34,730 nt of DNA from Candidatus Bathyarchaeia archaeon. GTDB taxonomy: Archaea; Thermoproteota; Bathyarchaeia; 40CM-2-53-6; DTGE01. The DNA lies in contig JAWBPF010000002.1 in NCBI GenBank assembly GCA_038825355.1, positions 1 to 34,730 on the forward strand. Reading direction: 5' to 3'. Both the position numbers and the translations under genes were made by a program. A model generated the notes under the pieces. It was not told the origin of the DNA, made no database searches, and saw nothing but the letters and a program-made list of their open reading frames with translations. Of this stretch, positions 367 through 30,952 are shown in pieces; the first letter of the stretch is position 1, and every line of letters begins with the position of its first letter.

Positions 367-825
367 ATGGCAAAAGGTAAGATCATTATAATCATGGGAT
401 CGGAGCATGATATGGAGTTCGCTTCAAGGATTAAGGATTTCCTCGATAGGGAGGGCTTCTCCGTCGAATGCGACTTCAAAATATGTTCAGCGCATAGGAG
501 TACCTATAGGCTCCTCCAACTGCTTCAGGAGCTTGAAGGCGAATCCCTTGTATATATAACCGTGGCGGGGTTATCAGACGGCTTGTCAGGGGTTGTGGCG
601 GGGAACTCCCTCCAACCGGTTATAGCATGTCCTCCAGATCTGGAGCGATACGGATGGGGTAAAGTCTTCTCTACGCTTTTCACCCCGAGAGGTGTCCCAG
701 TAACCTGCGCGATGCTGCCTGAAAACGCCGCCCTCGCCGCTGTGAGGATCCTAGCATTATATGATGAGAAATTAAAGGGGAAGCTCCAGGAGTATAGGGA
801 TCGTATCGCAGGGAGAGGAAGATAG
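367..825 (+). CDS. purE: PurE-family protein (N5-CAIR mutase / AIR carboxylase fold), divergent
   Basis: 152 aa with IIIIMGSEHD and CSAHRS matching the PurE GS-x-x-D and SAHR motifs. It is the first gene of the purEMSLQ row. The usual GGAAHLPG loop reads GLSDGLSG. Confidence 0.75.
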   Translation: MAKGKIIIIMGSEHDMEFASRIKDFLDREGFSVECDFKICSAHRSTYRLLQLLQELEGESLVYITVAGLSDGLSGVVAGNSLQPVIACPPDLERYGWGKVFSTLFTPRGVPVTCAMLPENAALAAVRILALYDEKLKGKLQEYRDRIAGRGR

Positions 826-951
826 GTGAGGATCCAGTGGGGCAAGGAAATCTGGGGATCCTACATGATCCACGGGATGTAAAAGGCATGGAATGAGTAT
901 CAGGTCTCAACTGAAGGAGTTTCGGGATATCGCTTATATTAGCCTTGGAAG

Positions 952-2052
952 GTGTTAATTTTGAGGTCTGGAGATGAATTGAAGGAGTACACCTATGCTG
1001 ATTCTGGTGTTGACCGAGATTTAAGGTTGAAATCTAAGGAGGCCTTAAGGCTTTTAGATTCTACGTTAACTCTCTCAAGATATGGAGATATAATTCAGCT
1101 TCCCTATGGGAGGCTCATACCCTTCAGGGATGGCTGGCTGGACCTGGTAATAGAGGGGGTTGGAACAAAGGTTCTAGTTGCTCAGTTAGCAGGTAAATTT
1201 GATACTATAGGAGTAGACGGTGTGGCTATGGCTGCCAATGATGTTATACGCTCCGGCGCCAGGCCTATATGTCTGGCGGATAACCTCCATGTTCAGAGGT
1301 CGGATCCCATCTTAATCAGGGAACTCCTAAAAGGCGTGATGGAAGGGGCCTTGGAGGCGGGCTGCCCAGTGGTTGGGGGCGAGATAGGCGACGTCGCCGA
1401 GATAGTAAGGGGGGTAAGTGGTGATGAAGGCTTCGATCTAGTGGTCGCCTGCATAGGTGAAGCCTCAGAAGCCGGGATTATAAGAGGGGTAAGGATAAAA
1501 ACTGGAGACGCGGTAATAGGCTTAAGGAGCTCGGGGATCCACAGCAACGGGGTCACCCTGGCTAGGAAGGTTCTTTTAAAGAGATGGGGAGGCTTATACG
1601 ACCCTTTCGATACGCCTGAAGAGCTCGGTAAGCCAATTGTTTACGAGATCCTAGAACCCACAAGGATATACGTGAAAACCATCCTTAGACTGTTGGATGA
1701 GTTTAGGGTTAAGGCGGCTGTCCATATAACAGGGGATGCCTACCTCAAATTTGAGAAGATCATGGCTTTAAACCCTGGGATAGGTTTCAAGTTCACGAAT
1801 TTTAAACCCCAAGCCATATTTCACTTAATCCAGGAGTCTTCCAGGAAGGTTAAAGGCCCCATAAGCGATTTAGAGATGCTGTACACCTTCAATATGGGGT
1901 GGGGTTTTGCGCTCATAGTTGATAGCGACTTAATAGATGACTGCCTCGACCTCCTTGGCAGGATAGGAGGAGAAGCGGAGGTTATAGGAGAGGCTAATAA
2001 ATCAGGACATATATCTGCTTATTTCAAAGGTAAGAAGCTTTTGTTGAGGTGA
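952..2052 (+). CDS. purM: Phosphoribosylformylglycinamidine cyclo-ligase (AIR synthetase)
   Basis: 366 aa with a PurM-like N-terminus (YTYADSGVD) and DLVIEGVGTKVLVAQ. The proposed start is GTG at 952, and the exact start is uncertain. Confidence 0.9.
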   Translation: MLILRSGDELKEYTYADSGVDRDLRLKSKEALRLLDSTLTLSRYGDIIQLPYGRLIPFRDGWLDLVIEGVGTKVLVAQLAGKFDTIGVDGVAMAANDVIRSGARPICLADNLHVQRSDPILIRELLKGVMEGALEAGCPVVGGEIGDVAEIVRGVSGDEGFDLVVACIGEASEAGIIRGVRIKTGDAVIGLRSSGIHSNGVTLARKVLLKRWGGLYDPFDTPEELGKPIVYEILEPTRIYVKTILRLLDEFRVKAAVHITGDAYLKFEKIMALNPGIGFKFTNFKPQAIFHLIQESSRKVKGPISDLEMLYTFNMGWGFALIVDSDLIDDCLDLLGRIGGEAEVIGEANKSGHISAYFKGKKLLLR

Positions 2053-2058
2053 ACATGA

Positions 2059-2313
2059 TTGAATCCTCATAGAGTTAGGGTGGAGGTCTCATTGAAGCCC
2101 GGCCACTCAGATCCTGAAGGCGATGCGACGGCTGAGGCGTTAAGGGATCTAGGCTATCCTGTTGAGGATGTGAAGGTCAGCAAGGTTTACACCTTAACGC
2201 TCAAGACATATTCAAGGGAGGAGGCTGAGCGCCTTGCAGAAGAAGTTTCTCGTAGGCTACTGGCGAATCCAACAAAGGACATGTATACGATAAGGGTTGA
2301 GGAGAAGGGATGA
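2059..2313 (+). CDS. purS: FGAM synthase PurS subunit
   Basis: 84 aa with a TTG start. VRVEVSLKPGHSDPEGDATAEAL is typical of PurS. Its stop overlaps the purL ATG (ATGA at 2310-2313). Confidence 0.85.
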   Translation: MNPHRVRVEVSLKPGHSDPEGDATAEALRDLGYPVEDVKVSKVYTLTLKTYSREEAERLAEEVSRRLLANPTKDMYTIRVEEKG

Positions 2314-4697
2314 ACCCCTACGTTAAAAGGGATACCCCCTTCCCCCTCCACGAGGTTAGGATCCTCAGGGCAGGAGAGGACTTACTGAGAAAGATCAGCT
2401 TAGAGATGGGTTTAGCGTTAAACCTTGAGGAGATGAAGAGCATAAAGAGATACTTTACGGCTTTGAATAGGAATCCAACGGATGTGGAGCTTCAAACCAT
2501 TGGGCAGACCTGGTCTGAACACTGTTTTCATAAGACCTTTAAGGGTGAGATACTCCTCGATGATGGGGCGAGGTTAGACAGCCTATTTAAGACTTTTATA
2601 GCGAGGGCCACAAAGGAGCTCGACCCCCCATGGTGTCTCTCGGTATTCGAGGATAACGCTGGGATAATAGCCTTCGAAGGAGACTACGGGATAGCTGTTA
2701 AGGTTGAAACCCATAACCATCCATCGGCTATAGAGCCTTTCGGAGGCGCTGCAACAGGTACAGGCGGAGTAATCAGGGACATCCTAGGCGTATGGGCTGA
2801 TCCCATAGCTTGCACCGACGTATTATGCTTCGGCCCCTTAAACTATGACTATGATAGGCTACCCTTAGGGGTTAAGCATCCCCGATACGTCTTTAAGGGT
2901 GTCGTAGCTGGCATCGGACACTACGGAAACAACATGGGCATACCAACAGTCAACGGAGCCATCTACTTCGATGACAGCTATACGGGAAACGTCGTCGTAT
3001 ACTGCGGCTGCATAGGGCTTCTACCGTTTAAATATTTCAAGAAGGATACTAGACCAGGGGATTCAGCGGTTCTAGCCGGAGGTAGAACGGGACGCGACGG
3101 GATCCACGGCGTAACCTTCGCATCCACGGTGCTCACGGAGGAGTCCGAGGAGGAATCTAGGCCTGCAGTTCAGATACCTAACCCTATAGAGGAGGAGAAG
3201 CTCTCAAGGGCTGTGAGAAAGGTTAGAGACGAAGGCTTATGCTCGGGGATAACCGACCTAGGTGGGGGAGGACTTTCAAGTGCTATAGGGGAAACCGCAT
3301 ACAGGTTCAATCTAGGAGTAGAAATCCATCTAGATAGGGTTCCATTGAAGTATTCCGGGCTGGCTCCATGGGAGATATGGATATCGGAATCCCAGGAGAG
3401 GATGCTCCTAACAGTTCCAGACAGCAATCTTGAGAGGGTCTTAGAGGCCTTCAGGGAAGAGGAGGTTGAAGCCACACCTATAGGCAGATTCGACTCTACA
3501 GGGAAACTGAGGCTAAGCTACAGGGGCTACATGGTTGGAGATTTAGATGTAGGGTTCCTCTTCTCGCCTCCAAAGGTAAGGCGTAGAGCCTTATGGGCGA
3601 AGCCTAAACCCTGTGAGGAGAGGATCCCCACCGAGCCTGAGGATCTATGCGAGACTCTGGAATCCATGCTCGCAATGCCCAACATCGCCAGCAGAGAAGA
3701 CGTTATACGCACATATGATCATGAGGTTAAGGGTAATACGGTGATAAAGCCACTCCACGGAGAACGAGGTGGGCCGAATGATGCAGCGGTTTTAAAGCCC
3801 CTGGATGATTCATGGCGTGGCTTAGCCGTATCCTGCGGGATGAACCCCTGCTACGGGAAGGTGGACCCATACTGGATGGCGGCTTCGGCCATAGACGAAG
3901 CTTTAAGAAATAATACCGCTGTTGGAGGGCGTAGGATCGCCCTCCTAGACAACTTTACATGGGGTAATCCTGAAAAGCCTGAGCAGCTAGGGGCCCTGGT
4001 GAGGGCCTGCGAGGCATGCTATAAAATAGCTAAGGGGTTCAAAGCCCCCTTCATATCAGGTAAGGACAGCCTATACAACGAGTCTCCCCTTGGACCTGTA
4101 ACCCCTACACTTCTCATAACGGCTGTAGGGATCGTCCCTGATGTGAGGCGGGTGGTCTCCCTCGACTTGAAGACCCCCGGCGACCCCATATACCTGGTTG
4201 GCATGACGTATAGGGAGCTAGGCGGATCCCACTACTACATGCTCCGAAAAGTTTCCTTTGGGAATGTACCGAAGGTTAGGGTAGGTGAAGCCCGCAGAGT
4301 AATGGCTGCAGTGACGCTGGCCATAGATTCAGGATGTATAAGGGCCTGCCACGACCTCTCAGAGGGGGGAATAGCTGTAGCAGCGGCTGAAATGGCGTTC
4401 ACCGGAGACCTAGGCTTTGAGATGGATCTCCGCCTAGTCCCATCTAGTTCAGAGCCCTGGAGGAGTGACCTCCTCATATTCTCAGAGTCCAACAGTCGTT
4501 TCATAGTTGAAGTCGATAAGCATCGTGAAGAGGACTTTAAGGCATGTCTCCGCTCAATCCCCCATGCCTGTATAGGAGCTGTCTCATCAGATCCCATACT
4601 CTCAATAAAGGGTTTGAAGGGAGAAACCGTTATCTCGGCTGAGCTGGATAAGCTCTACGAGTCTTGGCGTAGGGGGCTTGAGAGTTGGAGCCGTTGA
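2310..4697 (+). CDS. purL: FGAM synthase II (PurL)
   Basis: 795 aa with WSEHCFHKTF and VETHNHPSAIEPFGGAATGTGGVIRD, which are signature PurL motifs. Confidence 0.95.
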   Translation: MNPYVKRDTPFPLHEVRILRAGEDLLRKISLEMGLALNLEEMKSIKRYFTALNRNPTDVELQTIGQTWSEHCFHKTFKGEILLDDGARLDSLFKTFIARATKELDPPWCLSVFEDNAGIIAFEGDYGIAVKVETHNHPSAIEPFGGAATGTGGVIRDILGVWADPIACTDVLCFGPLNYDYDRLPLGVKHPRYVFKGVVAGIGHYGNNMGIPTVNGAIYFDDSYTGNVVVYCGCIGLLPFKYFKKDTRPGDSAVLAGGRTGRDGIHGVTFASTVLTEESEEESRPAVQIPNPIEEEKLSRAVRKVRDEGLCSGITDLGGGGLSSAIGETAYRFNLGVEIHLDRVPLKYSGLAPWEIWISESQERMLLTVPDSNLERVLEAFREEEVEATPIGRFDSTGKLRLSYRGYMVGDLDVGFLFSPPKVRRRALWAKPKPCEERIPTEPEDLCETLESMLAMPNIASREDVIRTYDHEVKGNTVIKPLHGERGGPNDAAVLKPLDDSWRGLAVSCGMNPCYGKVDPYWMAASAIDEALRNNTAVGGRRIALLDNFTWGNPEKPEQLGALVRACEACYKIAKGFKAPFISGKDSLYNESPLGPVTPTLLITAVGIVPDVRRVVSLDLKTPGDPIYLVGMTYRELGGSHYYMLRKVSFGNVPKVRVGEARRVMAAVTLAIDSGCIRACHDLSEGGIAVAAAEMAFTGDLGFEMDLRLVPSSSEPWRSDLLIFSESNSRFIVEVDKHREEDFKACLRSIPHACIGAVSSDPILSIKGLKGETVISAELDKLYESWRRGLESWSR

Positions 4698-4708
4698 AAG
4701 GTGTTAAG

Positions 4709-5512
4709 ATGTGCATAATCCGTGTAGGCGGAACAAACTGCGACAACGAGACTAGGAGGTCCCTCTTCGACGTAGGATTAAACGGGGAAGTCCTCCACCT
4801 CAACAGGGCAGCCAGGAAGGGACTAGATGGATACGACGCCCTAATCCTTCCTGGGGGCTTCTCCTACGGGGACTACGTTAGGGCGGGGGCGATATGGGCT
4901 AGGAGGCTCACCTCAAGGCTTCATAGGGGCCTGAAAAGATTCCTTGAGGATGAGAAGCCAATAATGGGCATATGCAACGGCTTCCAAGTCCTGGTTGAGG
5001 CTGGGCTTCTCCCCTCATTCAATGGCTTAGGAGACCTCCTAGATAAGGGTCCCCAAGCGGCCTTAGCAACCAATGAGCCCCCAGGCTACAGGTGTAGATG
5101 GGTGAGGCTGAGGATCGAAAGCTCAAGATGCATCTTCACCCATGGTATACCTGAGGGAGCTGTACTGAGGATCCCTGTAGCCCATTCAGAAGGGAGGTTC
5201 GCATTCCCCAAGGAGAAAGAGGAGGAATACCTGGAGAGGCTTACCGAGGAAGGGCAACTCGTATTACGCTACTGCTTAGAAGATGGAATCCCCGCACATG
5301 GGAGATACCCGTATAACCCTAATGGCTCCCTCTACGATATCGCAGGGATCTGCGATCCATCAGGTAGGATCTTCGGCTTGATGCCCCATCCGGAACGGGC
5401 ATACTATGGATGGCAGCTCCCAGACTGGACCAAGACGGGTGAGCCGCCGCCCTACGGCGATGGGAGACATTTCTTCATAGCTTTAAGATCATATCTGGAG
5501 AGATCTGCCTAA
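4709..5512 (+). CDS. purQ: FGAM synthase I glutaminase subunit (PurQ)
   Basis: Contains the GICNGFQ nucleophile elbow and MPHPER. I prefer ATG 4709 (MCIIRVGGTNCD) with GGTG at 4700-4703 over the track's TTG 4685, which would overlap purL. Confidence 0.9.
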   Translation: MCIIRVGGTNCDNETRRSLFDVGLNGEVLHLNRAARKGLDGYDALILPGGFSYGDYVRAGAIWARRLTSRLHRGLKRFLEDEKPIMGICNGFQVLVEAGLLPSFNGLGDLLDKGPQAALATNEPPGYRCRWVRLRIESSRCIFTHGIPEGAVLRIPVAHSEGRFAFPKEKEEEYLERLTEEGQLVLRYCLEDGIPAHGRYPYNPNGSLYDIAGICDPSGRIFGLMPHPERAYYGWQLPDWTKTGEPPPYGDGRHFFIALRSYLERSA

Positions 5513-6432
5513 CCTCCACCTCGTTGCTCCCTGAGGATGGCTTCAACCTCCTCTTTTGAGGGTAAACCCCTCCTAGCTCCTACTTCCCCTATACATTTAG
5601 AAGCTGTGAAACAGGCAAGTTTTAGACGGGCCTCTAGGCTTAGTCCCTTAAGGGTACCATATATGAAGCCTGCGTTGAAAGCGTCTCCAGCCCCTGTTGT
5701 ATCTACAACCCTGGTCTTAAAGGCTCCTACATGAAGGCTCTGTACTCCATCCATGGCGTAGCAGCCTCTACTCCCAAGCTTAACAACGACCATTTTAGGC
5801 CCGAGGTTTAGGAGCTTCTCTGCTCCATGCTCGAATCCGAGGCCTGTTAGGATACGGGTCTCCACCTCGTTAAGGAGGAGTATCTCCGTCCTCTCAAGGA
5901 GGGGTCTTATAGCCTCCTTCCTTCTGGCATATATCTCGCCGGGATCCAAGCTCACAATTATCCTGTCCCCGAGGCCTTCGAGGAGCTCTATCTGAGCTTT
6001 TAGGGGCTCATCTCCAACGAATGATGTTAAATGTATAAGCTTTGTTGATGAGGCATATCCCACGTCGACGTCTCCTCTTGTGAGGGTGTCGTTTACCCCT
6101 GGATCCACGTATAGCGCCCTCTCGCCTTCAGGGTCTACGAAGGCCATGACTACGCCGCTTCTCCCCTTACCAGCTACAGCTATCCCCCTAACGTCTACGA
6201 GGTTCTCCCTGAAATCTTTCAGGAGTAGATGGCCTTCCCTGTCATCAGCTACTTTCCCTACATATCCGGTGGAGAGGCCGAGCTTCGCGAGTGCCGTTAC
6301 AGTATTGGCTGCAGAGCCTCCGCATGACTCATTGTAACCCGTTATGAAACTCTCTTCCCCGGATCCTGCGATCCTGTTCACAAGGTAAACCTTATCGAGG
6401 TTCAGAGCTCCAAAGCCTATTACGTCGAACAT
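5509..6432 (-). CDS. PfkB/ribokinase-family sugar or nucleoside kinase
   Basis: 307 aa with the C-terminal TTGAGDAFNAGFIYG ATP/anion-hole motif and overall ribokinase-like layout. It is the last gene of the purF operon. Confidence 0.85.
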   Translation of the reverse strand: MFDVIGFGALNLDKVYLVNRIAGSGEESFITGYNESCGGSAANTVTALAKLGLSTGYVGKVADDREGHLLLKDFRENLVDVRGIAVAGKGRSGVVMAFVDPEGERALYVDPGVNDTLTRGDVDVGYASSTKLIHLTSFVGDEPLKAQIELLEGLGDRIIVSLDPGEIYARRKEAIRPLLERTEILLLNEVETRILTGLGFEHGAEKLLNLGPKMVVVKLGSRGCYAMDGVQSLHVGAFKTRVVDTTGAGDAFNAGFIYGTLKGLSLEARLKLACFTASKCIGEVGARRGLPSKEEVEAILREQRGGG

Positions 6433-6433
6433 A

Positions 6434-7357
6434 CTATCCTATGAGCTCCCTTAAGGATATGATGTGGCTTCCAAGTTTTCCCTGATAGTTGCCTGCAGAT
6501 ATCTTAACTACACCGTCCACTTGCGACGCGGCTTCAATCCCCACCTTCATAGCCTTCTCGACGGCCCCCAATGAAACACCGTTTATCACTACTTCGGGGA
6601 TATACTTTACATCCTCAGGGACCTTCGACTCTCGTCCAAGCCTATCCTTCAAGGATGGACAATAGTAATGGTTTGTAGAAGGGCCTATCCATGGATAATT
6701 CGTCTCGGGCTTCGAGCCTGCCGAGCATACGTCGAAGGGGGTTACAACTCCTTCAACCTCGGATATAGCTTTGAGAGCCTCCTCCCCAGCCTCCTTAACC
6801 GCCTTCCTCGTAGAACATAGATACCAGAAGTTGGCCCCCATCACTCCCTTACCGTATCCGAGTCGCCGCTCTATTATGAAATCCGGAACCATTATAGGCA
6901 CTACTATAACTTCCCTACCATACAATTCTTCAATCCATTCGTAGCCGTCGCCGCAGTAGCCTACCCGTTCCATCGTATCTATGAAACCCATAGGGTTCAT
7001 GGATGCATCGTACAGGGATGTGAAGGGCTTCACGAGTATATCCTGCCTTATCCTATAGGAGGATTCGATCTCAAGCTTCTTTATCGAGTCGCTTAAAGGC
7101 TTTGACGGCTCTATCCTACCCCAGAGCTGGATTATCGCTCCAGGCCTACCATCTGGTGTTTCGCCTGGTTTAAGCCAGGCTTCGACTCCCCCCTCAACCC
7201 TACCTATGACGACGGATGGTGTGGCGGTGGCGTCCTCAGCAGCTCTCCTAGCAGTCTCCTCATCGTCGGCGGTAACTATGAGCCTCAGGTATAAGCCGTC
7301 GAAGGCCTCAGCATACGTGTCCTCCACTATCTCCATTACATCCGGCATTTCACTCAC
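6434..7357 (-). CDS. ftr: Formylmethanofuran:tetrahydromethanopterin formyltransferase (Ftr) family protein, possibly a paralogue
   Basis: 307 aa resembling Ftr over its full length as I remember the family ([52 protein letters not shown]). Its start overlaps the stop of the upstream HAD-like gene. Confidence 0.85.
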
Positions 7358-8469
7358 CCGAGGGATCCCACAGCCTCTCCCCTAAGGGTTCTTCTAGCAT
7401 ATTTACTCTTCTCCATGAGGTTCATAAGGTTCTCCTCCGTTATAGTTGAGACTTCAAGGGGTATCTCTGACCTATACGACTTTAAAGCATTTATCAGCCT
7501 TGAAGGCAGATTAAACCTCTGCAGCCTCTCCAGGGTCCATTCGGATGCCACGTCAAGGACCAGTTCCCTGCCTCCATTTCTGAATAGATGCGCTAGGATC
7601 GCTGTAGGGGTTGCCGTACCTGATATCACGGCGACTTCAGCCTCCCTAAGGGCATACTCATTTCCGTTGAAGGATATTGATGCTCCTCCAGCATCCCTTA
7701 CAAGCTTCAGGGGAGCAACATCCGTTATACTGTCCCCGAGGTATATGACATCAGTTAAAGAGCATCTATTTCTAGAGACGACATCCTTTACGGCTTCAGC
7801 TTTTCCTTCCCCACCTATAGGGTTTACATCCAAGAGTATCTCTCCGCATTTCATGGAGGATAGTTCTCTCCAGAATATCTCATCCAGCCTTTCAAATACG
7901 GGTTTAAACCCCCTACTAGGGTCCATCAGGGCTTCAGGTGAAGGGTCGAGTACAGGCATCTCCAGGATTTCACGGCATAGCTCCCTAAGCTTTACATGCT
8001 CCTCCTCAGTCATCTCGTATCGGTCAAGATTGACTTGGGTGGAGTAGGCGCAGCTATGGGGAAGTCCCAAGGTTTCGCATACGGCTTCCACGTAGTGTCT
8101 ATAGCTTGTGCTGATGATATAGCTTGGCATGGCACCTCCTATGTATTTTAATGCTTCCAAGGCTCCAGGTACGAAGGCTATGCTACTCCGGGAATACTCA
8201 GCTATGCCCTCATCGGTTGCCCCGAAGGCTTTTAGGAAGGGTAGGATGAGCTTCAGGGTGTCCCCCGCCTTATATCCACGTCTCCTAACTACATCGGCTA
8301 ACACGTCGTCGTATCGGCTTATCCTCCTGAAGAATTCTCCTCCTCCAGGTATATAGTGGCTTGAGAGCTCGTAGGCGTTGTCATTTACAGTTATCGGTCC
8401 TTCACAGTCGGTTATGAAGACTCTACCCTCTATGCCAGCGGTCTTGGGCTTATCCATGGTAGTCATCAT
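7354..8469 (-). CDS. HAD-superfamily-like protein (resembles proteins annotated EhaR)
   Basis: 371 aa with HAD-like motif I as [10 protein letters not shown] (D-x-E variant), IISTS, a Lys in [10 protein letters not shown], and motif IV as YLGDSITD. The ATGATGA start overlaps the purD stop. Confidence 0.6.
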
Positions 8470-9875
8470 AGTCCTCTAAGGCTCCTCATATGGGCTATGC
8501 TTCGATTTATATGATCCTGAGAGGCTATATCCCCGCGATGCCAGAGGGCACCTCCTCTAATCCTCTCCAGGGCCTCGAGAGCCGTCTCCCTGGCTTCCTG
8601 GATCGAGTCGCCTATACCCACAGTGCATATAGCCCTAGACCTTAGAGGATATATCTGGCTGTCCCTCACCTCCATAGAGGCGGGATAAATCCTCAGCCTG
8701 TATGGATCCTTGTCAGCCAAGTCTTGAGCTTCCGTTAGATCCACCGGTAGGCCTACTTGGCTTTTATCAATCCTCCCAGGATATGCCTCCGAGAAGCCTC
8801 CGTAAATTGGGGGAACCTTATATATAACCACTGTGGCTTTCGCCTCCATGTCTACCTTCGTCAGGTTGCCGTCAAGGATTTTGAAGCACACCTCTGCTAA
8901 GTCACTCCTCATTACTGGAATTATATTTATTATCTCTGGATCACCGGGCCGGCTGTTTATCTCGAGGATCTTCACCCCTTCCCGTGTATGAATATAGGCT
9001 ATGTAGAAGGGTACTCCCAGAAGATTCGGGTTGGATCCCCCTCCCCTAAGGGCCTGAAATAGCTTTTCAGCGAACCGGATCTCCCTTTCCCTATCCCCTC
9101 TAGATAGGAAGGGTAGTACATCCCCGACATCCTTGTATGACCCCATCCCCCCTGTGTTGGGTCCTGCATCTCCATCGAAGGCCCTCTTATAGTCTCGAGT
9201 GTCCGGCAGCGGAATTAAATGGATTCCATCGCAGAATGCTTGGAAGCTGGATTCCTCGCCTATAACTTTCTCCTCGACTATCACGGGGCCGTAGGCAAGG
9301 TTCTCCCTGAAATGGCTGTAGAGGCCTTCTCTAGTCGTGAAATGGTCTCCCCATACTCCTACGCCTTTCCCAGCCGCTGGAGCGTCAGGTTTCACCACGG
9401 CCTCCCCTCCAAGCTCGTCCACCCATTCATAGAGTCTCCTTTTAAGGCTGGATTCATCCTTCAACTCCTCTGGATAGAATACTTTGAACTTGACGTTTAC
9501 TTCAGGGATGACTTCTTGGAGTAGCATCCTCTGCCTGACCTTACTTCCTTCAAAGGCGTAACTCTTCGTCGGACATATGGTTGGAATACTCAACTCACCC
9601 TCTAAGAGATCTCTCACACCTTCTATGATGGGTTTCTCAGGCCCAACAACTGCGAAGTCGATTCCTTCTCTATGCCTCGCAGCGTATCGCTTTATAGCCT
9701 GTACCTCCAGTTCAGGCATAACTATATGGTCAAAGGCTATCTTAGCGTTGAACGGGTTCCTCTGTTTATCGACTATGTACAGGTCTACCTTGTATTCACT
9801 GCTCCTGGAGAACATGTCGGCCATGGCTGCCTCCCTTGCGCCGTATGAGACGAGTAAGATGCCGATCCTATCCAT
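8466..9875 (-). CDS. purD: Phosphoribosylamine-glycine ligase (GAR synthetase)
   Basis: ATP-grasp protein with the PurD signature GPNTGGMGSY. I chose the internal ATG at 9875 (MDRIGILLVSYGAREAAM), which overlaps the purF stop by 8 nt. The track ORF extends to 9929. Confidence 0.88.
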   Translation of the reverse strand: MDRIGILLVSYGAREAAMADMFSRSSEYKVDLYIVDKQRNPFNAKIAFDHIVMPELEVQAIKRYAARHREGIDFAVVGPEKPIIEGVRDLLEGELSIPTICPTKSYAFEGSKVRQRMLLQEVIPEVNVKFKVFYPEELKDESSLKRRLYEWVDELGGEAVVKPDAPAAGKGVGVWGDHFTTREGLYSHFRENLAYGPVIVEEKVIGEESSFQAFCDGIHLIPLPDTRDYKRAFDGDAGPNTGGMGSYKDVGDVLPFLSRGDREREIRFAEKLFQALRGGGSNPNLLGVPFYIAYIHTREGVKILEINSRPGDPEIINIIPVMRSDLAEVCFKILDGNLTKVDMEAKATVVIYKVPPIYGGFSEAYPGRIDKSQVGLPVDLTEAQDLADKDPYRLRIYPASMEVRDSQIYPLRSRAICTVGIGDSIQEARETALEALERIRGGALWHRGDIASQDHINRSIAHMRSLRGL

Positions 9876-11358
9876 GGTCTCCTCCTCTAAGGATTGCCTC
9901 CTCCTCATATATTCTGTGATGTTCCTCAACTCCTTCTTCTAGGAGTTCTCTCATGCTGTCAGCCACCTTCTGGGCCATTGGCGTAGGATATCTTCCGGTT
10001 ATACAGGCTGTGCATAGTTCTTCCCTGGGCAGACCTGTGGCCCTTATATATGACTCTATAGACTGATAGTTTACGGAGTCGGCTTGGAGGATCTCCGCTA
10101 TTTCCTCAGGGTCATGGGATGCCCCTATCAACTCCCTATATGTAGCCATGTCTATACCGTAGAAGCAGGGAGCTATGATTCTCGGAAAAGTTACGAGTAC
10201 ATGGACTTCTCCAGCTCCCGAACCTTTCAGCCGTCTTATTACCTCTTTCATGGTGTCGCCACGCACTATACTGTCATCTATGAGGGCTACTTTTTTCCCA
10301 GATAATCTCCGGCCTAGGATGCTTACCTTCTTATTTAGTATTGTACGCCTCTCCTCGGAGAGCATTATGAATGCCCTCTCGGTTACATAGCGGTGTCTAC
10401 GAATGGCCCTCTCCCAGCGTAGCCCGGAGGCTTCATGCATCCCTAATGCAGCGTCATCAGCCGTCTCGGGCATAGATACTATCAGATCGCATCTATTCAA
10501 GATCTCGGGATATTCCTCTGCGAGGCCTCTACCCAGGGCTTCCCGGACCTCATATACGTATCTACCTCCTAGGAGGCTATCAGGCCTGGCGAAGTATGCG
10601 AACTCGAAAGCGCACAGACGACTCCCTCCGTTGCAGAGGCTCATCCTCGTGAAGCTTCGACCTTCAGCCTCAACGAGCTCTCCCGGGTTCACCTCAAACT
10701 CAAGGTTTAAGCCGTTTATCTCTAGTCCAATGGATTCGCTGGAAAACGCTTCAACGACGCTCTCAGGGGAGGCCCCGGCGCATAAAGGTCTTATTCCATG
10801 GGGATCCTTGAAGGCTGCAAGCCCACCTCCCGGGAGCATTACCACAACTGAATAAGCGCCCTCTACGTCCGCCATGCAAGCCTTTACTGCTTCAGGTAGG
10901 TCTCTATGCTCCTGGAGTTCCATGAGCAGCTTCCAGCATAGGGCTGCTGAATCACATGAACATCTTATACCTGTCCTGGTTTGGACATCCCCCTCCAGCC
11001 TTAATGCGTTCACCAGATTTCCGTTATATGATAGGACAGCCCAGCTTCCCGGGGAAGCCTCAGCTATCACAGGTTGAATATCCCTTAGGAGGCTAGATTT
11101 ATCCAAGCCTCCAGACGTACTGTAGCGGACGTTACCTATCCCTACATGGCCCGGGAGCTCAGCCGTCCATTCCTCCATCCCCTTCACATCTATTCTAGGA
11201 ATGATCCCAAGCCCCCTCCGGGTATGGAGGCCTCCATCATAAGTTGCGAATCCATGAGATTGATGACCCCTATGGTTAAGGGATTTCAAACCCCAATATA
11301 GATGCTGGAGTATGGCTTTGCCTTCACGGTCTAGGACGCCGTATACTCCACACGCCAT
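9868..11358 (-). CDS. purF: Amidophosphoribosyltransferase
   Basis: MACGVYGV places the Ntn Cys directly after Met. The PRTase motif is KKVALIDDSIVRGDT. ATG 11358 is preferred over the track's GTG 11385 because GGAGGT lies 9 nt upstream of it. Confidence 0.92.
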   Translation of the reverse strand: MACGVYGVLDREGKAILQHLYWGLKSLNHRGHQSHGFATYDGGLHTRRGLGIIPRIDVKGMEEWTAELPGHVGIGNVRYSTSGGLDKSSLLRDIQPVIAEASPGSWAVLSYNGNLVNALRLEGDVQTRTGIRCSCDSAALCWKLLMELQEHRDLPEAVKACMADVEGAYSVVVMLPGGGLAAFKDPHGIRPLCAGASPESVVEAFSSESIGLEINGLNLEFEVNPGELVEAEGRSFTRMSLCNGGSRLCAFEFAYFARPDSLLGGRYVYEVREALGRGLAEEYPEILNRCDLIVSMPETADDAALGMHEASGLRWERAIRRHRYVTERAFIMLSEERRTILNKKVSILGRRLSGKKVALIDDSIVRGDTMKEVIRRLKGSGAGEVHVLVTFPRIIAPCFYGIDMATYRELIGASHDPEEIAEILQADSVNYQSIESYIRATGLPREELCTACITGRYPTPMAQKVADSMRELLEEGVEEHHRIYEEEAILRGGDHG

Positions 11359-11367
11359 CTTGAGGTG

Positions 11368-11373
11368 ACCTCC
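11368..11373 (-). promoter_or_regulatory. Shine-Dalgarno-like site (GGAGGT) for purF
   Basis: The reverse strand reads AAGGAGGTCACCTCAAGATG, with GGAGGT 9 nt upstream of ATG 11358. Confidence 0.55.
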
Positions 11374-11802
11374 TTGATAGGCCACGTTCCATCATATGGT
11401 TCCCTAACCCCTACTGGTTAAAGGTTCCTTTTTAAACTAATCCGCCCATAAGAATAAACTCGGAGCATTTAAGGGGTACACCATAGACAAGCCTCAAGCC
11501 ATAATATAGGAAATATCCTACCTCGTGATGGGATGAAATATGTGGTAAGACCGATTTCAGAGCGGTTAATTCTAGGCTTTGAGCCTCATTAGTCTAGACT
11601 AATCTCCAAATAGTTGACATCTTACTACCTACGACCTAATAGGGAACCCATACTCGCACCCAGACTCCACATATACATATAAGGTGCAGGAATACATGAA
11701 TCTTACGAAGTCCTGTCTCCAGTTGAGTTCAACGTCTTCTGAAAGGAACTAATTTAATAAGGGAGCTATACATCATTATTAGAAATAGCCCGGGAACCAT
11801 GA

Positions 11803-11965
11803 AGCCCGGTGGAGTCGATCCCAAATCGCGGGGTCTACACCGAGTGTAGCGGACAAGCAAGGGCACCCTAAAATAGAAGCCAAATAAGGATGTAGAAAAG
11901 GGAGGTCCCTTGAGTTGCGGGCTTTGGACCCGTAGACGGGAGTTCGAATCTCCCCCGGGCTACCA
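11803..11965 (+). tRNA. tRNA-Gln(UUG) with two putative non-canonical introns and encoded CCA
   Basis: The 3' part is unambiguous: anticodon arm GCGGG-CUUUGGA-CCCGU (UUG at 11924-11926), T arm GGGAG-UUCGAAU-CUCCC, acceptor CCGGGCU, discriminator A, CCA. The 5' acceptor AGCCCGG is at 11803-11809 and is followed by UG. Joining exon 2 GUGUAGCGGACAAGCA (11844-11859) to UU at 11915-11916 gives a D arm GUGU/GCAU. This implies introns of about 32 nt (11812-11843) and about 55 nt (11860-11914), with junctions good to about 2 nt. Confidence 0.65.
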
Positions 11966-12143
11966 ACCCCATAGGGATCAATGAGTTTTTGCATATTGAA
12001 CCTGTCTTTGAACTATTCTTTTATACAGCCTCTAAAGCAGCCGGATAGCCTCAAATGAATCCTATTTTAAGCCAAGCTGAACTTCACTTCTATTCAAATC
12101 TAACAATTTGATATCAGGCTTGGTTAAGTTGAATTTGGAGGAT

Positions 12144-12170
12144 AGTCTGTTAGATGAAATCTAACAGACT
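12144..12170. repeat. Perfect 12-bp inverted repeat with 3-nt spacer (AGTCTGTTAGAT gaa ATCTAACAGACT)
   Basis: Read directly from the sequence. It lies in the AT-rich spacer between tRNA-Gln and the radical SAM gene. Confidence 0.9.
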
Positions 12171-12445
12171 TTAAATGCGAAAAACTTACTATAAATGGAA
12201 AACAAGCTACTAAAATGGTTAAAGATAGTTATTATTCTCAGATTTACTATTCCATAATTAAATTGTCGAGACTGATGGGTTGGGTAGCTCCTACAGGAGT
12301 TTTCAGTCTTTTATATTGTAGGAATTTGATTTTGTGAAGAAAACTTTTATAGAAAAACCGGCTTGTCCTTATAAACCTTAAGAAGGGATAAACCGTCACA
12401 CTTACATAAATAATTTCGATTTAAAACTCATTATGGTTAGGAGAG

Positions 12446-16660: not shown

Positions 16661-16774
16661 TGGGCCGGGCCGGATTTGAACCGGCGACCTTTCGGTTTCT
16701 TCATTCAGGGGGATTTATCAGCCGAACGCTCCTCGGCGCCTCATCCAGGCTCAACCAAGCTGAGCTACCGGCCC
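16661..16774 (-). tRNA. tRNA-Ile(GAU) with two introns (D-arm region and canonical 37/38)
   Basis: The reverse strand reads GGGCCGG-UA-GCUC-AGCUUGGUU...GAGC-G-UUCGG-CUGAUA[19 nt]A-CCGAA-AGGUC-GCCGG-UUCAAAU-CCGGC-CCGGCCC-A. The anticodon GAU is at 16717-16719. Thirty nt lie between the D-stem strands, implying a 19-21 nt insertion. Total length is 114 nt. Confidence 0.8.
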
Positions 16775-29129: not shown

Positions 29130-30197
29130 ATGAATAAGCTTCGAGGGATCGGGATGTATCTCCCTCCAACCGTGGAATGGCGAGACGGCTCCGTAGCCTT
29201 AATCGATCAAAGGAAGCTACCAGTAAAGCTTAGAGTAGTTAAACTTAAAACTCCCAGGGAAGTAGCCGAGGCTATTCGATGCATGATGGTTAGAGGCGCT
29301 CCCGCCATCGGGGTTGCTGCAGCCATGGGTTTAGCCTTAGCAGCATATAAAAGTAGAGGGCTGGGCCGTCATGCAGCTTTGAGAAGTATCAGGAAATCTT
29401 ATAATCTCCTGAGTTCAACAAGGCCTACCGCGGTGAACCTGTTCTGGGCCTTAAACCGCGTCATGGAAAAGATCAATTCCACGAATGGTGGAGGAGATGA
29501 GATAGCCGACGCGGCTGTCCAAGAGGCTGAACTAATAGCAAAAGAAGACTTAGAAACTAATAAGAAGATAGCCCAGATAGGTTCCACCTTGATAAGGGAT
29601 GGGGACACCATCCTAACCCACTGTAACGCCGGCGCTTTAGCTACCGTTGGATATGGAACGGCTCTAGGGGTAGTTAGAGGAGTAGCTGAGTCAGGTAAAT
29701 CCGTGAAGGTCATAGCCACTGAGACCAGACCCCTACTTCAAGGGTCCAGATTAACGGTTTTCGAGTTACAAGAGGATGGGATACCTGTAACGCTCATCAC
29801 GGATAATATGGTAGGATATGTTATGGCGAAAGGTTTAGTGGATAAAGTAATCGTAGGAGCGGATAGGATATTATCTTCAGGGCACGTCATCAACAAGATC
29901 GGGACGTTATCAGTCGCCATAATATCTAACAGCTTCAAAATCCCATTTTACGTGGCTGCGCCGACGTCAACCTTCGACCTTGAAACATCCTTAGGAGAAT
30001 TAGTAATAGAGGAGAGGGATGGCGACGAGATACGTAAAATATGCGGCAGACAAGTTGCTCCTCTAGATGTACCTGTGCTTAACCCTGCATTTGACGTGAC
30101 GCCTCCAGATCTCGTCTCAGGGATAATAACCGAAAAGGGAATCATTATGCCCCCCTACAATGAGTCGATATCCACGATAATTAAAAGGGGGCTGTGA
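29130..30197 (+). CDS. eIF-2B alpha/beta/delta-like sugar-phosphate isomerase (MTR-1-P isomerase or ribose-1,5-bisphosphate isomerase)
   Basis: VEWRDGSVALIDQRKLP, MVRGAPAIGVAAA and ILTHCNAGALAT are present. The start is ATG 29130 or ATG 29154. Confidence 0.8.
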   Translation: MNKLRGIGMYLPPTVEWRDGSVALIDQRKLPVKLRVVKLKTPREVAEAIRCMMVRGAPAIGVAAAMGLALAAYKSRGLGRHAALRSIRKSYNLLSSTRPTAVNLFWALNRVMEKINSTNGGGDEIADAAVQEAELIAKEDLETNKKIAQIGSTLIRDGDTILTHCNAGALATVGYGTALGVVRGVAESGKSVKVIATETRPLLQGSRLTVFELQEDGIPVTLITDNMVGYVMAKGLVDKVIVGADRILSSGHVINKIGTLSVAIISNSFKIPFYVAAPTSTFDLETSLGELVIEERDGDEIRKICGRQVAPLDVPVLNPAFDVTPPDLVSGIITEKGIIMPPYNESISTIIKRGL

Positions 30198-30208
30198 AGC
30201 ATTAAGGG

Positions 30209-30952
30209 TTAGGGGCCCCTCCCTTTAGATTGTACGTTAAGGATAGTCTCGACCTGGTATCGACCTTGTTCGGCAAGCTTCTTCCAGTCGTCGCCTATGG
30301 AGACGAGGGCGAATATCCCTGTAACCTCTCCTCGAGCCCTCTCCACGATCCTGATAAGGGCGTTCTGGGCTTCTCCACTATCTATCACGTCGTCCACGAT
30401 GAGGATAGAATCGTTCTTCCTTATAATGCCTCTGGGCACGTAGAGGCTTATCGTAACACCACTACCTGGGAGGATATACATCTCCTCTAAGAACTCTCTA
30501 ACTCCTACTTCCCGCTCCTTCTTAGCTATCACCAGCTTTACCCCTAGACGATGCGCCAGCAACGTTGAGAGGGGGATCCCATCCACAGCCGCCGTTAAAA
30601 CCTTTGTTATACGTTTACCTGCAAACTTGTCCACCGCATACTGCACAGCCCTCTCTAAGAATAGTGTATCTCCTATTATCCTAGTATTATCAAAGTATCC
30701 GTAATCGTCTAACTGGATCCTCTTCTGAAGTTCATCATCTAAGCGGAGTATTTTTTGGAGAACATTATTCATCGCCTCGGCCCTCTCAATCGTGGGCAAG
30801 ACATGTCCCTTCACGTAACGGCTTAGAACGGTCTCAGGCAACCCAATCATCTGAGATAATTCCCTATAAGTATAATAATTCTTTGCTAAATTAAGCAGTT
30901 CTATAGTCATAAGCTTGTACTTCAAGTCAAGTATTCTTGAAGCATTACTCAT
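30209..30952 (-). CDS. HTH domain fused to a phosphoribosyltransferase domain (PyrE-like/GfcR-like putative regulator)
   Basis: The N-terminal YTYRELSQMIGLPETVLSRYVKG is an HTH. The C-terminal SILIVDDVIDSGEA is a PRPP-binding loop. Confidence 0.65.
   Translation of the reverse strand: MSNASRILDLKYKLMTIELLNLAKNYYTYRELSQMIGLPETVLSRYVKGHVLPTIERAEAMNNVLQKILRLDDELQKRIQLDDYGYFDNTRIIGDTLFLERAVQYAVDKFAGKRITKVLTAAVDGIPLSTLLAHRLGVKLVIAKKEREVGVREFLEEMYILPGSGVTISLYVPRGIIRKNDSILIVDDVIDSGEAQNALIRIVERARGEVTGIFALVSIGDDWKKLAEQGRYQVETILNVQSKGRGP

Follow-up and report, generated by a model that had tools for sequence, protein, structure and literature searches.

An EhaR-EhaS-EhaT-like gene trio behind purF and purD in a Bathyarchaeia archaeon, a candidate for the missing formylation step of archaeal purine synthesis

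The distal genes of the eha operon of Methanothermobacter encode EhaR, EhaS and EhaT. EhaS is annotated there as formylmethanofuran:tetrahydromethanopterin formyltransferase (Ftr) and EhaT as ribokinase, and both genes are co-transcribed with ehaA-R (Kaster 2011, PMC3087415). Because of this co-transcription they were deemed unlikely to be a true Ftr and a true ribokinase (PMC3087415). The only function that the literature gives for EhaR, EhaS and EhaT of methanogens is that of a "subunit". The hydrogenase itself, energy-converting hydrogenase A (Eha), supplies the reduced ferredoxin for reduction of CO2 to formyl-methanofuran (PMC3087415). Here the same three families are described in a 34,730 nt stretch of DNA (the window) of a Candidatus Bathyarchaeia archaeon (assembly GCA_038825355.1, contig JAWBPF010000002.1, positions 1 to 34,730 of the forward strand). 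The trio lies behind purF and purD, and purF-purD-ehaR-ehaS-ehaT form one operon of this archaeon. The trio is the best candidate yet for the third step of purine synthesis, the formylation of glycinamide ribonucleotide (GAR). For this step, several archaeal lineages have been without a known enzyme since 2011.

Two Archaeoglobi, four Methanobacteriales and M. kandleri have neither purN nor purT while their purine pathways are otherwise complete (Brown 2011, PMC3261824). That paper prints "Methanomicrobiales" where the species listed are Methanobacteriales, and it considered at least two archaeal purine-pathway enzymes to be still undiscovered, among them the GAR formyltransferase of Methanobacteriales, Archaeoglobi and M. 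kandleri. The absence of purT from M. kandleri was restated in a 2023 survey (PMC10025317). An "Ftr2" clade has been noted in the anaerobic methanotrophic (ANME) archaea ANME-1 and both ANME-2a and ANME-2b, and in Archaeoglobales, M. kandleri and Methanothermobacter, and only Ftr1 has been characterized (Chadwick 2022, PMC9012536).

The minus strand was read directly from 5400 to 11700 for starts, stops and junctions. Five genes, namely purF, purD and those for a haloacid dehalogenase (HAD)-like, an Ftr-like and a PfkB-family protein, occupy 5509-11358 on this strand, and every junction is an overlap or a gap of 5 nt or less. The five packed genes described in an initial sequence-only reading of this DNA were thus confirmed. 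The first gene is purF (amidophosphoribosyltransferase; 9868-11358, minus strand; TIGR01134, 307 bits). It starts at ATG 11358 with AGGAGG upstream and stops at TAG 9870-9868. Its N-terminus reads MACGVYGV, with a cysteine directly after the methionine. The second gene, purD (GAR synthetase; 8466-9875, minus strand), has GARS_N, GARS_A and GARS_C domains and scores 232 bits with TIGR00877. Its ATG at 9875 gives an 8-nt overlap with purF, and its TGA (8468-8466) lies within ATGATGA. The HAD-like gene (ehaR-like; 7354-8469, minus strand) starts at ATG 8469 in that same ATGATGA and stops at TGA 7356-7354. The gene caller chose the next ATG, which gives 370 amino acids (aa), and the product is thus 370-371 aa long. 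It resembles phosphatases of HAD subfamily IB, with a weak C-terminal match to PF12710 (29.6 bits). The Ftr-like gene (ehaS-like; 6434-7357, minus strand) had been described as overlapping the HAD-like stop at 7354-7357. A GTG at 7357 (GTGA) is indeed present, but ATG 7348, 5 nt past the HAD-like stop, is the more likely start since GGTGA precedes it and the database copy of the protein has 304 aa, which matches ATG 7348. The gene stops at TAG 6436-6434, and the PfkB gene (ehaT-like, ribokinase-like kinase; 5509-6432, minus strand; PF00294, 158 bits) begins after a 1-nt gap at ATG 6432. It is the last gene of the operon. Its stop (5511-5509) overlaps by 3 nt the stop of the convergent purQ (5510-5512), so there is no intergenic room for terminators between the two pur operons. 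The packing is real but not unusual, as such packing is normal in operons. The gene content is the unusual part. The nearest homologs of all proteins are in metagenome-assembled genomes (MAGs) of Bathyarchaeia.

The facing cluster is purE-purM-purS-purL-purQ (367-5512, plus strand; Pfam AIRC, AIRS/AIRS_C and PurS). The genes purE, purM and purS were confirmed directly by Pfam. The identification of purL and purQ comes from their 57-64% identity to genes with Pfam annotation in L001, a locus from the neighborhood survey described below. No match to purN (Formyl_trans_N, PF00551), purT, purP (DUF1246/1297), purH, purO, purC or purB was found among the 30 window open reading frames (ORFs) scanned, and tblastn of purP and purC against the window also gave none. 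These results bear out the earlier inventory of purE, M, S, L, Q, D and F in a window without purN, T, H, P or O. The pur cluster around the trio of L001 includes purE, purC, purP, purM, purS, purL and purQ. Step 3 is the only pathway-specific step without a gene in that cluster, IMP cyclohydrolase aside.

The reading favored here is that the trio supplies step 3, the conversion of GAR to formylglycinamide ribonucleotide (FGAR), in organisms that use methanofuran and tetrahydromethanopterin (H4MPT) instead of folate. EhaS would formylate GAR or its riboside from the methanofuran/H4MPT pool of one-carbon (C1) units, and EhaR and EhaT would handle the ribose 5'-phosphate. This is given about an even chance of being correct. 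As an Ftr paralog with the catalytic glutamate, EhaS would transfer the formyl group, most likely from formyl-methanofuran, onto the glycinamide amine, and EhaR and EhaT would both have the 5'-phosphate of that ribosyl substrate as their target. The order of the genes was counted in favor, as the trio follows purF-purD in pathway order. The linkage of the trio to eha in Methanobacteriales is also logical under this proposal since Eha supplies the ferredoxin for making formyl-methanofuran, the proposed donor. A new C1-donor route into purines had been suggested by the sequence-only reading. This suggestion is partly supported. The Ftr2 clade, the purD linkage and the PurN-like replacement described below speak for it, and we infer the acceptor, the formyl donor and the roles of EhaR and EhaT. 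The module would share with PurN and PurT the reaction and the place in the operon after purD, and a PurN-like protein sits in the equivalent slot of a bacterial module. It would differ from them in having two extra enzymes and in drawing on the methanofuran/H4MPT pool rather than on 10-formyl-tetrahydrofolate or on formate and ATP. The EhaS-like protein has no sequence homology to either enzyme.

The three proteins are orthologs of EhaR, EhaS and EhaT. This identity had been named in the sequence-only reading and was confirmed by the JGI name of the HAD-like family ("energy-converting hydrogenase A subunit R"), by the annotations in Kaster 2011, by the same gene order and by 66% identity of the EhaS proteins. 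The same three families occur in the same tightly packed order at the distal end of the Methanothermobacter eha operon, with 56-66% identity for EhaS and 34-44% for EhaR. The window differs in that its trio is joined to purF-purD, and no ORF for a NiFe hydrogenase, Complex1 or polyferredoxin protein was found in the 34.7 kb.

The neighborhoods of the trio were surveyed with one scan of GTDB genomes using an EhaR alignment. At least 587 relatives were found, and locus counts are from the best 80, which were mapped by tblastn and ORF clustering. The order purD-ehaR-ehaS-ehaT was present in all 15 loci from Bathyarchaeia (14 loci) and Ca. Mnemosynella (one locus), and was kept down to about 45% EhaR identity. 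purF was upstream in 11 of the 15, and a convergent purQ-L-S-M was found in most. In three Bathyarchaeia genomes (L049, 11075-12049; also L068 and L074) a 324-aa ORF with an N-terminal membrane anchor lies between ehaR and ehaS, so the trio tolerates an unrelated insertion. In the 13 Methanobacteriales loci the trio lies at the 3' end of eha, where genes for an NADH-dehydrogenase-like protein, the NiFe small and large subunits and two polyferredoxins precede it and a third polyferredoxin gene follows. In L071, in contrast to the window, the eha hydrogenase and polyferredoxin genes are all present beside the trio. Linkage to pur genes rather than to eha genes therefore held throughout the Bathyarchaeia and Mnemosynella loci but not in Methanobacteriales, where the linkage is to the hydrogenase. 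The placement between polyferredoxin genes, together with the co-transcription with ehaA-R in Methanothermobacter (PMC3087415), is what speaks for the current textbook view that EhaR, EhaS and EhaT are structural or accessory subunits of Eha. This view is nevertheless considered extremely improbable. There is no hydrogenase gene near the trio in the window or in any of the Bathyarchaeia, Archaeoglobi or bacterial loci, and all three proteins have soluble enzyme folds with intact catalytic motifs.

The 36 Archaeoglobi loci had no adjacent Ftr gene. An ehaR-PfkB pair was found in 16 of them, and a subgroup represented by AF1437 adjoins an Asn-synthase-like gene. The neighbors of ehaR in Archaeoglobi (Asn-synthase-like, FMN reductase, RNA cyclase, Nre and S-adenosylmethionine (AdoMet) synthetase genes) were considered as clues to function and set aside, as nothing evident ties them to purines or to C1 metabolism. 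An archaeal AdoMet synthetase gene lies within a few kb of ehaR in 14 loci of Archaeoglobi and Bathyarchaeia (L001, 3917-5131; Archaeoglobi including L008, L009, L015, L021-L023, L027, L028, L032, L034 and L036). The remaining type of neighborhood was found in bacteria (Desulfobacca, Desulfomonilaceae, Desulfobacterales and Actinomycetota) and on one contig labeled Methanomassiliicoccus. These loci had PfkB, Formyl_trans_N and EhaR in that order, or PMT_2-PfkB-EhaR, or EhaR alone. L096 represents a distant sister clade of the Ftr2-like type. Its EhaR-like gene (27% identical) precedes a PfkB gene (39%), and an Ftr-like gene (37%) is convergent with them, so the three families are together there in another arrangement.

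The EhaS-like protein has full-length FTR (PF01913, 147 bits) and FTR_C (PF02741, 194 bits) domains. It scored 344 bits with NF002554, above the cut-off of 297, and 239 bits with the fhcD equivalog TIGR03119, below the cut-off of 292.6. Methanobacterium EhaS and the protein from Mnemosynella are each 66% identical to it. Its identity to the three solved archaeal Ftr proteins is 38-42%, compared to 61-68% among those Ftr1 enzymes themselves. A neighbor-joining tree was constructed from 80 sequences (the window protein, 28 locus-derived proteins, four PDB entries and 47 representatives at 50% identity). Every trio-linked Ftr protein fell in one clade, apart from the clade holding Ftr1 (1FTR, 1M5H, 1M5S) and FhcD. 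The homolog therefore does not cluster with catalytically characterized Ftr. This outcome, like that of the other proposed checks that were run, favored the sequence-only reading. Residue E255 of the EhaS-like protein corresponds to M. kandleri E245, the catalytic, oxyanion-stabilizing glutamate (Glu252 in FhcD; mechanism in PMC6926001), and it is kept in both clades. A further 44 positions are common to the Ftr1 and Ftr2 clades and 13 are fixed differently between them, for example F127 to C, T99 to V, S207 to A and G212 to E (M. kandleri numbering). The EhaS-like protein thus resembles Ftr and FhcD (6S6Y) in its two-lobe fold family, its Glu245 equivalent and the 44 conserved positions. It differs in its 35-42% identity, its separate clade and the constant company of a kinase and a HAD protein. 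Domain fusions of Ftr homologs were looked at as a clue to EhaS and discarded, as the homologs were fused only to domains of the FwdA-like amidohydrolase or FwdC-like GXGXG kind, which belong with the Ftr1/FhcD type. On a Thermoproteota contig (L094, 6001-12505) a 330-aa Ftr2-like gene lies beside carB and 5 kb from a 4HFCP_synth gene (MfnB, methanofuran biosynthesis).

The full-length domains, the NF002554 score, the catalytic glutamate and the 44 family-wide positions would all suit an ordinary formyl-methanofuran:H4MPT formyltransferase, and all public annotations say Ftr. EhaS would in that case be an isoenzyme for the Wood-Ljungdahl pathway of Bathyarchaeia, its pur placement would reflect the C1 demand of purine synthesis, and the true GAR formyltransferase, be it PurT, PurN or another enzyme, would be encoded elsewhere. 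This explanation is regarded as distinctly unlikely. The EhaS clade is distinct from all characterized Ftr, and organisms with proven Ftr1 also retain the EhaS-type paralog (PMC9012536). The kinase and HAD protein that constantly accompany EhaS have no role in the Ftr reaction, and a PurN-like enzyme takes the place of EhaS in the folate-using bacterial module.

The closest PDB relative of the EhaR-like protein is 1Y8A (E-value 9e-36). This is AF1437, a structural-genomics "hypothetical protein" of A. fulgidus and the only solved member of the EhaR family. HAD motifs I-IV (nucleophile Asp, Ser/Thr, Lys and acidic GDxxxD) are all present in the EhaR-like protein, as is the Rossmannoid fold with its cap. 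The invariant residues are D21-x-E23-G-P, STSY (120-123), K223 and GDSITD (245-250), and the glutamate at Asp+2 (D-x-E-G-P) is atypical. A C-terminal RGEAxGxLG is also conserved. AF1437 has the D-x-E-G-P, STSY and GDSxxD motifs in common with the EhaR-like protein. It differs from it in sequence (30% identity in the Foldseek alignment, 34% in another alignment) and in context, as its gene in Archaeoglobi adjoins the Asn-synthase-like gene and has no kinase or Ftr gene beside it. The AlphaFold2 model of the EhaR-like protein had a pLDDT of 92. Foldseek placed 1Y8A first, followed by phosphoserine phosphatases (SerB/PSP), ThrH and MtnX, and because of these neighbors the modeled protein is assigned to HAD subfamily IB.

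Ribokinases were the closest PDB entries to the EhaT-like protein (about 105 bits). Its top family matches were ribokinase (TIGR02152, 148 bits against an equivalog cut-off of 299.65) and ribose-1-phosphate kinases (138-140 bits), and every equivalog cut-off was missed widely. There was also a weak match to rfaE_dom_I (43 bits). In ribokinase, N-x-D and GAGD serve to contact the 2',3'-OH groups of ribose and as catalytic base. Both motifs are kept in EhaT, while an invariant GGSAANT replaces the ribokinase GGKGAN, with loss of Lys43, and the position aligned to ribokinase Glu143 is not conserved in the family. A plain ribokinase identity for EhaT was rejected on these grounds, since the scores fall below the cut-offs and the signature residues are not there. 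The motifs would fit a 5'-kinase for a 1'-substituted riboside.

The family matches could also be taken to mean that EhaT and EhaR act as a pair in the salvage of ribose or nucleosides. One would be a ribokinase or a kinase for ribose-1-phosphate and the other a phosphatase or mutase, and they would feed ribose 5-phosphate and phosphoribosyl pyrophosphate (PRPP) to PurF, the role of the Ftr-like protein being unrelated or regulatory. In its favor, the bacterial module of L078 and L084 has a PNP_UDP_1 nucleoside phosphorylase gene and purM in its vicinity, and a PRPP synthetase gene lies near the Ftr-like gene of L095. Against it, the kinase and HAD genes flank the formyltransferase gene specifically and not purF or prs, and the missed equivalog cut-offs, the replaced Lys43 and the non-conserved Glu143 position apply here too. 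A salvage pair is judged very unlikely.

The bacterial loci provide a second form of the module. In anaerobes of the Desulfobacca, Desulfomonilaceae and Actinomycetota type a different formyltransferase is flanked by members of these PfkB and EhaR families. Among NCBIfam models it fits PurN (TIGR00639) best, at 35-70 bits and under the cut-off of 150. The top PDB hits are likewise PurN throughout, the protein has the N-x-H...D motif, the JGI family name is purN, and there is a C-terminal extension of about 100 aa. Judged from sequence comparison, a folate-type PurN-like enzyme fills the Ftr-type slot, a non-homologous displacement in a conserved kinase and HAD frame. In L093 (4469-6966) two tandem HAD-like genes (414 and 363 aa) follow the PurN-like gene.

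The PurN-like enzymes fall into two types by their N-terminal loop. Those with SSGRD(Q/R/E/K)(A/V)A (SSGRDQAA type; L051, L060, L065, L067, L078, L084, L087, L092 and L093) have EhaR adjoining in 9/9 of the loci inspected. PfkB adjoins in 8/8 with the upstream flank on the contig, as the L067 contig begins at the PurN-like gene. Those with SSGRGQGS (L085/L086, L089, L090 and L091) form a single nested clade that includes Desulfobacca acetoxidans. EhaR and PfkB are lost in 4/4 of these and a backbone of family 2 glycosyltransferase (GT2)...PmbA is kept. We take the equivalent loop of E. coli PurN to bind the 5'-phosphate of GAR. If so, the altered loop would suggest a non-phosphorylated acceptor for those PurN-like enzymes that are linked to the kinase and the HAD protein.

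The simplest specific scheme runs in gene order. EhaR would dephosphorylate GAR, EhaS (Ftr2) would formylate the resulting glycinamide riboside with formyl-methanofuran, and EhaT would re-phosphorylate the product to FGAR at a cost of one ATP. Such a three-enzyme dephospho-shunt would be a third, non-homologous solution to GAR formylation. It would fit the gene order, the phosphoserine phosphatase-like EhaR, the riboside-kinase-like EhaT and the PurN-loop co-variation, but in this complete form it is speculative and rather unlikely.

Several points weigh against a role in GAR formylation and have to be set beside the evidence for it. A simple formyl transfer chemically needs neither a kinase nor a phosphatase, and the shunt costs ATP for a benefit that is unproven. 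The PurN loop co-variation is a single evolutionary event. If Bathyarchaeia have no second, canonical Ftr, the EhaS-like gene may simply be their Wood-Ljungdahl Ftr. The ehaR-ehaT pairs of Archaeoglobi have neither an adjacent Ftr gene nor pur genes. ANME-2a and ANME-2b have both Ftr2 and PurN (PMC9012536). Finally, the bacterial and DPANN contexts hold GT2, PMT_2 (ArnT-like), PRPP synthetase and YdjC genes and not pur genes, so a formylated glycoconjugate pathway would fit them.

These last contexts lead to a broader alternative, that the trio is a general module serving a pathway to a glycoconjugate, lipid or cofactor. It would take the 5'-phosphate of a 1'-substituted ribosyl (or pentosyl) compound off and on and would attach an N-formyl group to that compound. 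The Bathyarchaeia purine operon would then merely share PRPP or ribose chemistry with the module, for which known pathways offer analogies. In the ADP-heptose pathway a PfkB kinase (HldE) is paired with a HAD phosphatase (GmhB) on one sugar. With ArnA, ArnC and ArnT (formylated amino-arabinose), N-formylation is transient and is the work of a PurN/Fmt-type enzyme that is accompanied by GT2 and GT-C transferases. The trio resembles both in logic only, apart from the weak rfaE_dom_I match. Bacterial loci have PMT_2 (GT-C, ArnT-like)-PfkB-EhaR and GT2-PfkB-PurN-like-EhaR arrangements with YdjC nearby, and L095 has GT2-PMT_2-PRPP synthetase-Ftr-like-HAD. The low scores of the PurN-like proteins (35-70 bits against 150) and their C-terminal extension, as in sugar N-formyltransferases, point the same way, as does the EhaR-PfkB pair without a formyltransferase in Archaeoglobi and some bacteria. 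The position directly after purD in 15/15 Bathyarchaeia and Mnemosynella loci does not, and none of the usual amino-sugar pathway genes (aminotransferase, nucleotidyltransferase, dehydratase) was seen next to the trio. In relatives without PfkB and EhaR the GT2...PmbA backbone persists, so GT2 may be a passive neighbor. A general module of this kind would further leave the reported match between Ftr2 and lineages missing purN and purT unexplained, and it is held to be doubtful.

L095 (1055-7651) carries GT2, an unknown gene, PMT_2/GT22, PRPP synthetase, two small ORFs, an Ftr-like gene and a HAD_2 phosphatase gene. It is a DPANN-like contig whose protein P0254 belongs to a cluster that includes a member labeled Aenigmarchaeota. 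An Ftr2-like gene thus occurs in a glycosylation and PRPP setting, and neither purine nor methanofuran synthesis would be expected of its lineage.

For GAR formylation by the trio, the published distribution is suggestive rather than perfect. The lineages for which neither purN nor purT is reported are among those said to carry Ftr2. ANME-1 has neither purN nor purT, and ANME-2c has PurT and is not listed among the holders of Ftr2 (PMC9012536). In labeling work, as it is cited in Brown 2011 (PMC3261824), purine C8 of M. stadtmanae came from C2 of acetate even with formate present. As far as that citation goes, this would speak for a C1 donor bound to a carrier and against formate in free form. 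In the library of papers that was searched, no text combined formylmethanofuran with FGAR or GAR, AF1437 and MTH403 were not mentioned, and Brown 2011, Kaster 2011 and Chadwick 2022 were the only relevant papers. Residues of the PurN phosphate loop were also searched for, with no usable result. The EhaR, EhaS and EhaT genes were known already; their link to purine synthesis appears to be new to the literature.

Other features of the window were also recorded. A 1.1-kb AT-rich spacer (11386-12445; GC about 0.41-0.43) separates purF from a divergent radical-SAM gene. About 70 nt upstream of the ATG of purF it contains TTTAAAAA (11429-11436, minus strand). This may be an archaeal TATA box, but it is only a look-alike of the consensus, read from the sequence. 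Rfam and tRNA scans of the window found no riboswitch or regulatory RNA upstream of purF, and the spacer matches no Rfam family. At 16661-16774 (minus strand) Rfam predicted a 114-nt tRNA (53 bits), probably an intron-containing archaeal tRNA, while ARAGORN reported none in the window. At 29130-30952 an IF-2B-family gene (ribose-1,5-bisphosphate or methylthioribose-1-phosphate isomerase type, 310 bits) is convergent with a gene having HTH_3 and phosphoribosyltransferase domains. This pair, at a distance of 18 kb from the trio, adds to the ribose-phosphate metabolism of the window.

The Bathyarchaeia operon is a specific and testable candidate for the GAR formyltransferase gap of Methanobacteriales, Archaeoglobi and M. 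kandleri, which was still listed in 2022 and 2023. The bacterial PfkB-PurN-like-HAD version is a folate-dependent form of the module and is directly testable in E. coli. If the proposed role is true, two or three "hydrogenase subunits" would be reassigned to nucleotide metabolism, the anaplerotic role of Eha would be tied to the C1 units that purine synthesis withdraws, and a methanofuran-dependent reaction outside methanogenesis would be added. "Ftr" matches alone in Bathyarchaeia or other MAGs would then be no evidence for an H4MPT Wood-Ljungdahl pathway. If the three-enzyme shunt is true, it would explain the missing purN and purT in Methanobacteriales, Archaeoglobi, M. kandleri, ANME-1 and probably Bathyarchaeia. 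It would also explain the presence of the trio on the eha operon, with Eha refilling the formyl-methanofuran that is withdrawn, and the bacterial kinase and HAD protein alongside a PurN-like enzyme with a putative phosphate-loop change (GQGS to DQAA). The "Ftr" counts behind the inference of a Wood-Ljungdahl pathway in Bathyarchaeia may in that case be inflated.

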